IMG/VR virus record: IMGVR_UViG_3300029394_000152
Source of the DNA: a virus
Length of the DNA: 64,000 nt
Direction: 5' to 3' (one strand)
In this document: positions 11,086-19,483 of the stretch, piece after piece
Numbering within the stretch: position 1 is the first letter of the stretch
How the letters are laid out: the number at the start of each line of letters is the position of its first letter
Translations under genes and position numbers: made by a program
Notes under the pieces: generated by a model
What the model saw: only the letters and a program-made list of their open reading frames with translations
Databases searched by the model: none
What the model was told of the DNA's origin: nothing

Positions 11086-11163
11086 CCGGGTGTAGCGCAG
11101 TTTTGGTAGCGCGCTTGAATGGGGTTCAAGAGGCCGTGAGTTCGATTCTCGCCACTCGGACCA
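11086..11163 (+). tRNA. tRNA-Pro (GGG)
   Basis: cloverleaf with 7-bp acceptor, C1:G72 and A73 typical of bacterial tRNA-Pro, anticodon loop AUGGGGU, T-loop TTCGATT, encoded CCA. Confidence 0.8.
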
Positions 11164-16702: not shown

Positions 16703-16886
16703 GGATGTAAATGAAGGTACATAACAGAAGTCCCACCGAAAAAGCCCTGCACAAAAATGAACAGTGCAGGCATACGTTCGAGATCACCCACAAGCGGTGT
16801 GCGCCGTGCAGTGGCTATGATACGAACTGTGAACGTTACGAAAAAACCAAGGGTGCTGCTGATACAAAAACATCTAAGGTATGAAT

Positions 16887-16925
16887 GAGCCGCCACGCAC
16901 CGCGTCAGCGCGGCGGCTTTTATAT
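16887..16925 (+). terminator. rho-independent terminator
   Basis: gccgcc...ggcggc stem followed by TTTTAT. Confidence 0.5.
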
Positions 16926-16930
16926 GGCGC

Positions 16931-17355
16931 GGGGCTGAACCTTGAAACGACGCAGGGGGAAACCACCAGCGGGGCCACACCCCGTCCGCGCCGCTTTGCA
17001 GCAGGTATTCATGGAAGCCGGTGCGTTTGTCCATAATTTGACGCACCGACAGGGGCAGAGGGTGCCGTATGGCGGCGTTTCTCCCGTGTAAGCTGGTGCA
17101 AGACCACGCTGCCTTTCTGCCAAGCTACGCCCGCATGACGGTGCGGAAACCGATTTGGGCGTGCACGCCGCATGAGCGAAGAAATGCCTTGTCCGATCCA
17201 CCCAAGCCAAAGGTGGAAGGTCTGCTTGACCAAGACCGGCCCGCCGCGCTGCTCTCTTGCGCGGTGGGTTCTGATATGCGGGTGCAGCAAGGAAGTTGTC
17301 CGCCGTCCTGATCCCCCATCGGTAGGCAAGCCGGTTCGATTCCGGCCACCCGTGC
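16931..17355 (+). ncRNA. tmRNA (ssrA)-like RNA with an aberrant 3' end
   Basis: 5' GGGGCUGAACCUUGAAACGACGCAGGG resembles the tmRNA acceptor plus D-analog; GGGGGA/UCCCCC could form a P2-like helix; perfect T-arm GCCGG-UUCGAUU-CCGGC at the 3' side; the following CACCCGUGCAAG cannot pair with the 5' GGGGCUG and lacks CCA; no coding ORF. Confidence 0.35.
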
Positions 17356-17390
17356 AAGAACTATGAAAAAATCAATAGGAGGTAAAAAGA

Positions 17391-17591
17391 GTGCTTTACG
17401 TCGATGCAATAAGGATTTTGGAGAAAATTGCACAGGCGAGATTCCTTCACGCGACAATGCCGAAACAAGAAGAAATCGAAGAAGCGATTAAGGTTGTGGC
17501 AAGTCAGGTAACGGTTCAGGCTTGTCCGGGCTTCGCGCTTCATGCCGCACTGTGGTGGATGGCAATTAAATCTAAAGAGGCAGAAGAATGA
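17391..17591 (+). CDS. hypothetical protein
   Basis: GTG start with an AGGAGGT RBS; 66 aa. Confidence 0.35.
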   Translation: MLYVDAIRILEKIAQARFLHATMPKQEEIEEAIKVVASQVTVQACPGFALHAALWWMAIKSKEAEE

Positions 17592-18999
17592 TTCATTTGG
17601 GCGACATTACTAAAATCCATGGAGACCAGATTGAACCCGTGGACTGCATCACGTTTGGTTCGCCTTGTCAGGATTTGTCCATGGCAGGCTTGAGAGCTGG
17701 CCTTGAGGGGAAAAATTCCGGTCTGTTCACAGAAGCCATAAGAGTTATTGTAGAAATGAGGGTTGCCACAAATGGAATGTATCCAGCTTTCGCTATCTGG
17801 GAAAATGTTCCCGGAGCTTTCAGCTCAAACGGCGGAGAAGATTTCAGAACCGTGCTGGAAAAACTTGCCCACGCGGCACAACCAGACGTTTCAATTCCTC
17901 GACCTGCGGGGGGGGGCGATGGTGCAAGGCCGGAGCAATCATCGGAAACGGCTGGTCTCTGGCATGGCGGTTGCTCAACGCTGAACGTTGGGGAGTGCCC
18001 CAGCGTAGAAAGCGTATCGCAGTTGTCGCAGATTTTAGAGGTCAATGTGCCGCAGAGATACTTTTTGAGCGCACGGGCCTGTCAGGGAATCCTGACAAGA
18101 GCATCCCGACGTGGCAAAGCGTTACCGGATTTACTCAAAACTGCCCTGCTGGACATGATCGAGTGGTGGCAGGGGAGGCAGCCTACACCCTGAAAATCCG
18201 TTCGGGATGTGCAGGAGGCGGGAAAGGCGCACTGGTGCAGACAGAAAAGACGGGAACGCTCTCGACGCTTCAAGACCAGACCCTTTTCCAGCCAATCGTC
18301 TTTGACGCTCGTGGAAATGGCAACGGTAAGACAGTTCCGACCATTACCGGAGATCATGAGAGCCGCGTCACAGACTATACGGCTATTGCGGTCGATCTGT
18401 ACAACGGAGCTGTTACCGGAAGCAAGGCGGCAGCCTTGAGTTGCAAGAATACCGGGACGACAGCGGGGCCGCAGGTTGCTGAAAGAAAAACCTATAGCGA
18501 GCAGACTTTCTCTACATACAAAGAAAGCGACAGCAGTGCAACACTGAAAGCGAAAACGGGAAATATCGAAAACGGTGGGGAATGCCTTGTGGCGGAACGT
18601 GTCGTGCGCTGGATCGTCCGAAGATTGACCCCGACGGAATGTGAGCGCCTGCAGGGATACCCGGACGGATGGACAGACATCGGGGAATGGACGGACACCA
18701 AAGGGAAAAAGCATAAACCGGCAGATACGCCGCGCTATAAGGCACTGGGAAACAGCATTGCCCTTCCGCAGTGGTTCTGGATTGCCCAGAAGATGCGGCC
18801 ATACCTGAAAGATAAGCCAACACTGGGAAGCCTGTTTGATGGAATTGGCGGTTTCCCGCTTGTGTGGGAGACGGCATATGGAGCAGGTACAGCAGTGTGG
18901 GCGTCTGAAATTGAAGAATTTCCAATTGCAGTAACAAAAAGGTGGTTTGGAAATGACACGGAAAATGAAAGCAATTCTGGTGCTGTTCTTCGCGGCTGA
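17588..18999 (+). pseudogene. C5-cytosine DNA methyltransferase, frameshifted at a G9 tract and with permuted motif order
   Basis: frame A carries GDITKI, PCQ (motif IV) and ENVPG (motif VI) up to RPAGGG; frame B carries GRWCKAGAIIGNGWSLAWR, QRR (VIII), RLTPTECERLQGYPDGW (IX), GNSIALP (X), then motifs I-II (LFDGIGGF, ASEIEEF) at the C-terminus; ten G's would join the two frames. Confidence 0.7.
17908..17916. repeat. homopolymeric G9 tract inside the methyltransferase coding region
   Basis: cctgc-ggggggggg-cgatgg; the frame changes exactly here. Confidence 0.8.
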
Positions 19000-19483
19000 G
19001 ATCGTCAACAGCGCAAAGGTCGGCGTACTGAAAGGCCGTATTGCAGACCTTGAGACCCAGCGGGATATTTACGCAAGCCGTGCCCAGAACTGGCTTGACC
19101 GGGCTGTAGAGGACGAAGAAGTTATTGATTCTCTGCAAATTCGCCTTGATGAAACAGCGGACAGGAAAATCGAGCTGACAGAGGCAGGTACATTTTTCTG
19201 CACGGCATATTGCACAGAACAGTACGAACATATCTGCGGAGAAGGACACGGAATTACGGCCAGCGGCCAGCCTATACAGGCAGGCGTCACTGTGGCAGCG
19301 GACACGTCCATCTTTCCGTATGGAACGGTTCTGTACATTGAGGGCGTAGGAATCCGCATTGTGCAGGACAAAGGAGCCGCCATTCAGGGAAAACACCTTG
19401 ATGTAGCTGTGGACACTCACGAGAATGCCGAGAAGTGGAACGGCTGTGGAAATCATAGAGTATGGGTTTTGAAGGAGAAATAA
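18953..19483 (+). CDS. 3D-domain protein (MltA/YabE-like)
   Basis: N-terminal hydrophobic segment; C-terminal 3D motif IVQDKGAAIQGKHLDVAVDTHENAEKWNG. Confidence 0.6.
   Translation: MTRKMKAILVLFFAAEIVNSAKVGVLKGRIADLETQRDIYASRAQNWLDRAVEDEEVIDSLQIRLDETADRKIELTEAGTFFCTAYCTEQYEHICGEGHGITASGQPIQAGVTVAADTSIFPYGTVLYIEGVGIRIVQDKGAAIQGKHLDVAVDTHENAEKWNGCGNHRVWVLKEK

Follow-up and report, generated by a model that had tools for sequence, protein, structure and literature searches.

A hypervariable G tract as a probable phase switch in the gene for a putative, circularly permuted C5-methyltransferase of temperate Faecalibacterium phages

A DNA stretch of 64,000 nucleotides (nt) from a virus (IMG/VR virus record IMGVR_UViG_3300029394_000152; here 'the window', at its full length) carries a prophage gene for a C5-methyltransferase at 17588-18999 that is broken by a run of nine G's. 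The original prediction, made from the letters alone, located motifs IV and VI before this run and motifs VIII to X after it, and the analysis confirms that arrangement. The upstream open reading frame (ORF), ORF1 (17588-18193, 201 amino acids (aa)), reads MIHLGDITKIHGD...PCQ...ENVPG...RPAGGG up to the run and then proceeds for 90 codons out of frame. Straight after the run, the frame ending at 18999 picks up as RWCKAGAIIGNGWSLAWR...QRRKR...RRLTPTECERLQGYP...GNSIALP. The continuation past the run was seen correctly, but the frame was labeled +1, and the coordinates make it −1 relative to ORF1.

As had been anticipated, ten G's give a continuous methyltransferase. Adding one G yields an ORF of 470 aa (G10), and removing two yields one of 469 aa (G7). 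The repaired protein matches the Pfam profile PF00145 (DNA_methylase) with E = 7.4e-35 and 121 bits, at a cut-off of 22 bits, and also matches phage methyltransferase PHROGs. The C5-methyltransferase motifs I (FxGxGG), IV (PCQ), VI (ENV), VIII (QRR), IX and X (GNS) are all present, and they are invariant or nearly so in a 60-sequence alignment.

The G9 run is the sole G/C run of at least 7 nt in the window, which also has no A/T run of at least 9 nt. Dinucleotide shuffles contain a G9 run 0.74 times per window on average, and at least one in 39 of 100 shuffles. Chance alone could thus give such a run, and its significance lies in its position at the frame junction together with its conservation and polymorphism. 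Tracts of 7, 10 and 13 G are in frame and encode AGG, AGGG and AGGGG, respectively. Those of 6, 9, 12 and 15 G lead to a truncated product of 200-203 aa, and those of 8, 11 and 14 G to one of 131-133 aa, so the G9 allele of the window is OFF. In an AlphaFold2 (AF2) model, the predicted loop at aa 98-114 that holds the tract codons lies between the helix following motif VI and the strands of motifs VII and VIII.

At G8, G11 and G14, a third frame that is open upstream of the tract (MECIQ...) becomes fused to the 3′ part, giving a chimeric ORF of 408-410 aa that lacks motifs III-VI (proteins P0513-P0515). Gene callers pick this chimeric ORF in place of the short one; it is labeled 'C-5 cytosine-specific DNA methylase' in NCBI records, for example UWD57714.1, and masks the real N-terminal ORF on long contigs.

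The closest records share the flanks of the tract and differ in its length, which is G9 in the window and in Faecalibacterium phage FP_Toutatis, G11 in MT836117, and G14 in phage Lelie. When public viral and metagenome contigs were scanned, 44 non-redundant loci with exact flanks were found. Their spacers are 7-15 nt long and include the interrupted forms G9A, G10A, G11A, G9C and G9AG5, of which G9A, G10A and G11A appear to show slippage ongoing inside one sub-lineage. Nine independent assemblies with 0 differences over the remaining 1,403 nt of the gene have tracts of 14, 9, 8, 8, 10, 12, 7, 8 and 10 G, making six different lengths. Other homopolymers of the same contigs, 5-6 nt long, hardly vary.

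To count tract lengths, the products that G6 through G15 would give on the major haplotype were predicted and looked up by exact sequence. Counts are given in index blocks unless contigs are stated, and those for G8 and G11 sum two products, the short ORF and the chimeric ORF. All ten lengths were found. The in-frame alleles are G7 (839 blocks), G10 (3,360) and G13 (293). The out-of-frame alleles are G6 (43 contigs), G8 (1,603 + 1,362 blocks), G9 (5,988 blocks), G11 (623 + 1,809 blocks), G12 (453 blocks), G14 (49 contigs) and G15 (11 contigs). The distribution is unimodal with a peak at about 9-10, and approximately 27% of the alleles are in frame. In the F. prausnitzii L2-6 chromosome, the annotated methylase is the G13 allele, which was likewise found in a 177-kb contig with 50x coverage, and G9 is present in an isolate-type genome (900-kb contig, GCA_002549895.2). 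When contigs in lysogen context were compared with the others, integrated copies were 8 OFF to 1 ON, which is not significant. Incidentally, one variant product (P0003; 6 contigs; window about 17740-17916) has one additional base inserted about 170 nt upstream, for which the G tract compensates, so that the ORF is full length (470 aa) with aa 52-107, including the ENV motif, scrambled.

A comparison of the tract across strains had been named beforehand as a test, and the many lengths found clearly favor a hypermutable switch. The opposite outcome, a single length everywhere, was not observed, as in-frame alleles (G7, G10 and G13) and out-of-frame alleles are both abundant. The proposed phase-variable switch is therefore supported by thousands of assemblies in which a gene that is otherwise the same has tract lengths of 6-15, with all three frames populated.

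Selection was examined on both sides of the tract. Among 36 loci with a complete 3′ half, both halves are open to the same stop codon in 30, and the 6 exceptions with extra lesions are mostly very low-coverage contigs. Variants within the Toutatis clade are 21 synonymous and 20 nonsynonymous, with a ratio of nonsynonymous to synonymous polymorphism (pN/pS) of about 0.3 (binomial p = 1.2e-4 versus neutrality). Compared with relatives of 60-92% identity, the corresponding divergence ratio (dN/dS) is 0.10-0.24 before and after the tract, including pairs of out-of-frame alleles. The methyltransferase gene is under purifying selection in both halves and is not decaying, which contradicts the frameshift pseudogene offered as the alternative in the original prediction.

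The run itself is also conserved. Relatives at 60-75% identity contain G6-G9 at the same codons, with A(G/A)G-GGG-GGC-AGA-TGG (G6/G7) used almost without exception. GGG is the rarest Gly codon of the prophage (11.7%), and the synonymous divergence (dS) from these relatives is about 1-1.5, with synonymous sites elsewhere saturated. In this clade, G7 is in frame at 24 of 24 loci, and the out-of-frame forms are G8 (in three flank contexts), G6 and G9. At 156 further loci, frame breaks between motifs VI and VIII were found nowhere but at a G run. At 76 loci from species-representative bacterial genomes, all 8 frame breaks between these motifs are at G8 or G9, with none lacking a run; these relatives came from a protein-based scan, as an exact-flank search of the species-representative genomes returned nothing. 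In the Toutatis clade, the run is expanded to about 10 and is far more unstable. A dip in synonymous diversity near the tract is unspecific, with similar dips elsewhere in the gene. Patches of low synonymous diversity (0.03-0.14, with 0.22 overall) were observed at codons 56-70, 86-105 and 146-180, in the conserved blocks (relatives L046-L104), and one of them flanks the tract; phage-phage recombination or nucleotide-level constraint may produce them. Taken together, the locus has the features of a contingency locus, namely an intragenic repeat of at least 7 G, ON and OFF alleles in near-identical genomes, and a gene otherwise under selection.

The original prediction was right in calling the enzyme a C5-methyltransferase but treated it as an ordinary one, overlooking that motifs I and II sit at the C-terminal end. 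In alignment with M.HhaI, aa 5-87 correspond to residues 59-134, aa 124-151 to 146-172, aa 339-407 to 266-322, and aa 415-457 to 16-56. Likewise, the 5′ part aligns to positions 46-132 of the PF00145 profile, and the C-terminal 63 aa alone align to positions 4-43. When the last 50 residues are moved to the front, a single continuous PF00145 match results (positions 4-132; 136 bits versus 121 bits), and the un-permuted construct gives a single HhaI block (residues 16-135) with E = 3.6e-13 versus 2.5e-9. The chain opens with motifs III-X and closes with motifs I-II, which places its new termini between motifs II and III. Judged from its sequence, the enzyme is a natural C5-methyltransferase with the 'Type B' circular permutation in the published classification (PMC5944983).

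The order III-IV-...-X-I-II is found in all close homologs. It is found at 59 of 80 viral loci, where motif I stands at a fixed +213 nt after motif IX, and 13 of the 80 are sisters with canonical order. Three homolog searches yielded 304 proteins, and at least 289 of them have the permuted order. Of 3,266 clusters at 50% identity that match with E <= 1e-30, the top 149 include about 120 that are permuted. The canonical sisters (36-43% identity), among them L105 and L110 with motif I present, open with the same module, ...LGSLFDGSGGFPL...WASEIEPFPI.VT.KR.P..H(L/Y)GDI. An ancestor with canonical order in the same phage lineage probably gave rise to the permuted form by duplication and truncation. 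A 547-aa protein (P0234; L126:655-2298) has the motif I-II module at both its N- and C-terminus, which is the intermediate predicted by the duplication-truncation model; it comes from a single contig with 1.6x coverage and may be a chimera. Enterobacter phage CobraSix appeared permuted by tblastn coverage but was rejected, as its C5 enzyme is canonical and is fused to an adenine methyltransferase.

The AF2 model was computed with the 60-sequence alignment, after an earlier run on 9 close homologs gave a predicted local distance difference test score (pLDDT) of 30 and was discarded. Its core is modeled with pLDDT of 80-96 (aa 1-160) and 74-91 (aa 400-443), and a beta-alpha-beta unit is confidently predicted at the C-terminal end (strand 413-416, helix 423-431 and strand 436-440). 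In Foldseek searches, the best matches of the model are M.HhaI, M.HaeIII and M.MpeI, with E down to 8e-8, which shows the core to have the fold of C5-methyltransferases.

The variable region between the conserved blocks is a mosaic of 117-318 aa, with 52 block combinations in 274 proteins. Many of its blocks contain a Thr-Leu dipeptide, which is typical of C5 target-recognition domains. The number of module combinations would be consistent with multispecificity. In this region, an 84-aa deletion (P0008) and insertions of 41 to about 110 aa (P0004 and P0024) were also observed.

The gene lies in a prophage (Table 1). The window is host DNA from 1 to about 11125, and from 11126 it is collinear with Toutatis (97-98% identity) and Lelie past the window end. 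Coordinate 1 of Toutatis is window 11126, adjoining a large serine recombinase, and the tRNA-Pro gene marks the attachment site. The methyltransferase gene is equivalent to Toutatis gp14 plus gp15. Because the Toutatis tract is also G9, as in the window, Toutatis is annotated with two methyltransferases. The gene is located within a rightward block, downstream of a cro-like helix-turn-helix gene oriented divergently to a cI-like repressor and the serine integrase, and this position in an early lytic-direction block argues against expression in lysogens. Since no restriction enzyme gene is adjacent, the methyltransferase is an orphan.

Table 1 Features of the prophage junction, the methyltransferase gene and its neighbors in the window
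Feature	Position	Strand	Remark
tRNA-Pro(ggg)	11086-11163	+	left prophage junction
Upstream 66-aa ORF	17391-17591	+	stop overlaps methyltransferase start (ATGA); found at all related loci
Shine-Dalgarno-like AAAGAGG	17574-17580	+	ahead of methyltransferase start
5′ methyltransferase part	17588-17907	+	aa 1-106 plus 2 nt; motifs III, IV, VI; no upstream motif I-II
Motif III GDIT	17600-17611	+	
Motif IV PCQ	17663-17671	+	catalytic Cys
Open third frame MECIQLSLSGK...	17772-17907	+	upstream of tract; fuses to 3′ part at G8, G11, G14
Motif VI ENVPG	17801-17815	+	
Homopolymeric G9 tract	17908-17916	+	probable switch
3′ methyltransferase part	17917-18999	+	−1 frame in this G9 allele; stop codon 18997-18999
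ORF1 out-of-frame tail, G9 allele (DGARPEQSS...QGRQPTP, stop)	17917-18193	+	without methyltransferase homology
Motif VIII QRRKR	18001-18015	+	
Mosaic variable/target-recognition region	about 18064-18606	+	
Motif IX RRLTPTECERLQGYP	18619-18663	+	
Motif X GNSIALP	18748-18768	+	linker then motif I
Motif I LFDGIGGF	18832-18855	+	
Motif II WASEIEEF	18898-18921	+	
3D-domain protein gene (Toutatis gp16 homolog)	18953-19483	+	overlaps methyltransferase 3′ end by 47 nt

Promoter and terminator scans around the gene gave nothing better than shuffles. Upstream of the 66-aa ORF, about 500 nt (16885-17390) contain no convincing ORF, and gene callers sometimes call one of 72-80 aa at 17069-17311. A hairpin resembling a tRNA T-arm, GCCGGTTCGATTCCGGC, is present at 17330-17346 and was rejected as a tRNA, as ARAGORN finds none there. 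In an Rfam search of the upstream 1.2 kb, all matches were far below threshold. According to the annotations of matching records, the prophage also encodes a reverse transcriptase of a diversity-generating retroelement. In a metagenomic contig (L214:1-5100), the prophage arm on the serine recombinase side adjoins ParA, ParB and RepA_N genes, an arrangement suggesting that it is integrated into a plasmid-like element or carried on one.

The reading that fits best is that the G tract makes the methyltransferase phase variable, and we consider it quite probable. In this mechanism, a temperate Faecalibacterium phage like Toutatis and Lelie would carry in its early lytic-direction block an orphan C5-methyltransferase that is functional when in frame. 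Slipped-strand replication would change the length of the intragenic poly-G, which as a contingency locus would toggle expression at high frequency. The tract encodes a short Gly loop between motifs VI and VIII; with 7, 10 or 13 G the protein runs on in frame, and at every other length it ends before motif VIII. The in-frame enzyme would methylate phage DNA during lytic growth, and the resulting mixed progeny could be a bet-hedge. Methylated progeny would escape classical restriction, and unmethylated progeny would escape methylation-dependent restriction or the mutagenic or metabolic cost of 5-methylcytosine. Lelie, with the OFF allele G14, is spontaneously induced and makes particles (PMC11792537); because it does so, the methyltransferase is dispensable on Lelie's own host.

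Several points weigh against this reading. The in-frame share (approximately 27%) is not above the one-third expected of a free-running tract, and because in-frame alleles are not enriched over one third, the census gives no sign of selection for ON at present. Homopolymer miscalls, in low-coverage Illumina assemblies or in long-read ones, could account for some of the ±1 spread. The tract spectrum is an assembly-level one, from which high-rate and reversible slippage within lineages is inferred; many lengths on one haplotype suggest, at most, high-frequency reversible switching in a clonal population. As for the enzyme, motif conservation and engineered analogues argue that the permuted form would be active when in frame, and its variable (target-recognition) region has pLDDT below 50 in the AF2 model. 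The bet-hedging rationale is likewise a conjecture about what mixed progeny would gain.

The tract spectrum could instead be a sequencing or assembly artefact, the true sequence being G10, with G9 and much of the public length spread due to homopolymer miscalls. Long G runs are indeed error-prone, the G14 of Lelie comes from NovaSeq two-colour chemistry, several variant loci are in assemblies with coverage below 3 that have other lesions, and G8 and G11 are each one step off the two commonest lengths. However, the exact G9 product occurs in 5,988 assembly blocks, including isolate genomes, which already speaks against the sequencing error raised by the original prediction, though a one-base miscall in this window itself is conceivable. 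The lengths span 6-15, beyond ±1, and G13 is found in 293 blocks that include the 50x contig of 177 kb and the F. prausnitzii L2-6 chromosome. With this breadth and these isolate and 50x occurrences, ±1 miscalls are no explanation, though they surely add some noise. Furthermore, G7 was obtained at 15.7x and G10A at 24x coverage, the base-interrupted alleles G9A, G9C and G9AG5 exist, and shorter homopolymers are stable in the same contigs. We regard the artefact as quite unlikely. A plain pseudogene, in which the methyltransferase is dead in the lineage and the tract drifts neutrally, would account for about 70% of alleles being out of frame with the in-frame share near one third, for the few loci with additional lesions, and for the viability of Lelie with its OFF allele. 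It would not account for dN/dS of 0.1-0.2 in both halves even between OFF alleles, the significant synonymous excess within the clade, the 30 of 36 loci without a second lesion, the run's nucleotide-level retention over a dS of at least about 1, or the thousands of intact G10, G7 and G13 alleles, and is thus highly improbable.

The DNA frame would matter little if OFF alleles were expressed by recoding, either through programmed −1 ribosomal frameshifting or through slippage of RNA polymerase. Runs of at least 9 identical bases can support transcriptional slippage, as is established for A/T runs. A stable hairpin is predicted immediately 3′ of the tract in the window (17914-17976; z = −2.9 in a 121-nt context). 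Yet the hairpin begins within the last G's of the tract, leaving no spacer, and it is not conserved; 16 relatives have a consensus fold of −13 kcal/mol with a covariation of −0.4 and one compensatory pair, and the structure is a different one. A programmed site is expected to have a fixed length, whereas all lengths and all three frames occur here and in-frame alleles are common. With neither the tract length fixed nor the downstream structure conserved, the locus does not resemble a programmed ribosomal frameshift site, and we consider recoding very unlikely. If transcription slips on the G run at a low level, the one effect would be a leaky OFF state, which is compatible with phase variation. 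The two ORFs of the G9 allele could also be translated separately and assemble into an active methyltransferase. Natural (M.AquI-type) and engineered split C5-methyltransferases exist, M.MpeI fragments complement each other (PMC5944983), and Toutatis is annotated with two methyltransferase coding sequences. However, the sequence after the tract has no start codon preceded by a ribosome-binding site. Its first in-frame candidate is a TTG at 17971, which has no Shine-Dalgarno sequence and is downstream of family-conserved residues. In addition, the split position moves with tract length, and an engineered Type B enzyme bisected after motif VI ([62-191]+[192-61]) did not complement (PMC5944983). 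A split enzyme is therefore hardly credible.

Bacterial Mod and Type I systems are the classical case of methyltransferases that phase-vary through repeats (PMC13076061). The phage gene resembles the Mod phasevarions of Haemophilus, Neisseria, Helicobacter and Moraxella and cj0031 of Campylobacter, in that an intragenic repeat sets the frame, ON and OFF alleles occur among near-identical strains, and the gene is otherwise conserved. Those systems, in contrast, are chromosomal Type III, I or IIG adenine methyltransferases of pathogens whose switching and regulons have been shown (PMC13076061), whereas the phage gene is an orphan C5-methyltransferase of a temperate phage in a gut commensal, known as a sequence. 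In phages, polyG tracts are described in receptor-binding genes of Fletchervirus (Sorensen 2021, as cited in bioRxiv 10.1101/2025.10.21.683753), and 'contingency loci' were proposed in 2025 for homopolymers of T2 and T4 (bioRxiv 10.1101/2025.10.21.683753). In the phage loci as presented there, tracts of 7-11 G give frameshift heterogeneity in progeny, read as bet-hedging against host defence. Their targets are adsorption or rII-type genes, whereas the present target is DNA modification, with a population-scale length spectrum from sequence data. A polyG in the methylase gene of Bordetella phage BPP-1 is mentioned by the same preprint, a secondary citation for it, as never studied further (bioRxiv 10.1101/2025.10.21.683753). 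The Toutatis paper and the Lelie paper (PMC11792537) do not mention the methyltransferase or a frameshift, and the other papers found in the literature searched, including those on CJIE1, concerned host genes rather than phage methyltransferases.

Long modular variable regions are known from other phage enzymes. The Bacillus phages SPR, phi3T and rho11s have multispecific orphan C5-methyltransferases with exchangeable variable-region modules, which provide self-protection against several restriction systems. Unlike the gut-phage family described here, with which they share a long modular variable region, these enzymes have canonical motif order and no repeat switch, and no sequence relationship to them was found among phage matches at E <= 1e-20.

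Circular permutation is also known among C5-methyltransferases. M.BssHII, M.Alw26I, M2.Eco31I, M.Esp3I and M2.BsaI (Type H) and plant DRM2 have the ten motifs and fold in common with the phage family and are circularly permuted, presumably by gene duplication and truncation. In DRM, the break is between motifs V and VI; the DRM chains 4onj and 4onq match aa 1-54 at their C-terminal end, consistent with this break. The Type H break is in the variable region, with motifs IX-X preceding I-VIII (PMC5944983), and that of the phage family is between motifs II and III, inside the catalytic domain. The nearest likeness is to the engineered Type B permutants, which have the same N-terminus between motifs II and III, the motif X helix joined to motif I, and the order III-IV-...-X-I-II (PMC5944983). 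Among ten permutation types, the engineered 'Class B' (N-terminus between II and III) was the most active (Slaska-Kiss et al., PLoS One 2018; PMC5944983), and cp62M.MpeI had activity comparable to wild type (PMC5944983). Those enzymes are laboratory constructs of CG-specific methyltransferases, whereas the phage family is natural and diverse and has a large mosaic variable region. The Type B topology was reported in 2018 as absent from nature, and its builders asked why, suggesting weaker binding of S-adenosylmethionine (PMC5944983). In further literature searches, no report of a natural Type B C5-methyltransferase was found.

Putting the parts together, this may be the first natural and very abundant II/III permutant and the first documented phage methyltransferase phase-varied by a homopolymer, through which a gut prophage would release epigenetically mixed, bet-hedged progeny; we hold this combined proposal tentatively, as plausible but short of probable. 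The switch itself is known in kind. Its setting is new, with temperate phages of a dominant gut commensal as carriers and a modification enzyme as the target, and the Type B permutation appears to be a new natural variant of a known enzyme family.

For enzymologists, the family would be a natural counterpart to the engineered Type B permutants, and the canonical sisters allow direct comparison. Because a large, selected natural family exists, the question of why nature lacks Type B becomes testable. Practical consequences concern sequence data. Annotation pipelines split or mis-fuse the gene, giving 'methylases' of 131, 201 or 408 aa, and frameshift-correcting polishers would erase genuine tract variation. 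To contingency-locus biology, the gene would add DNA modification by a temperate phage whose host genus, Faecalibacterium, is a dominant gut commensal associated with health, and its allele spectrum can already be seen in over 16,000 public assemblies. If the ON and OFF states control methylation of phage DNA, host range, the linking of virome to host by methylation motifs, and phage engineering for this genus would all be affected.

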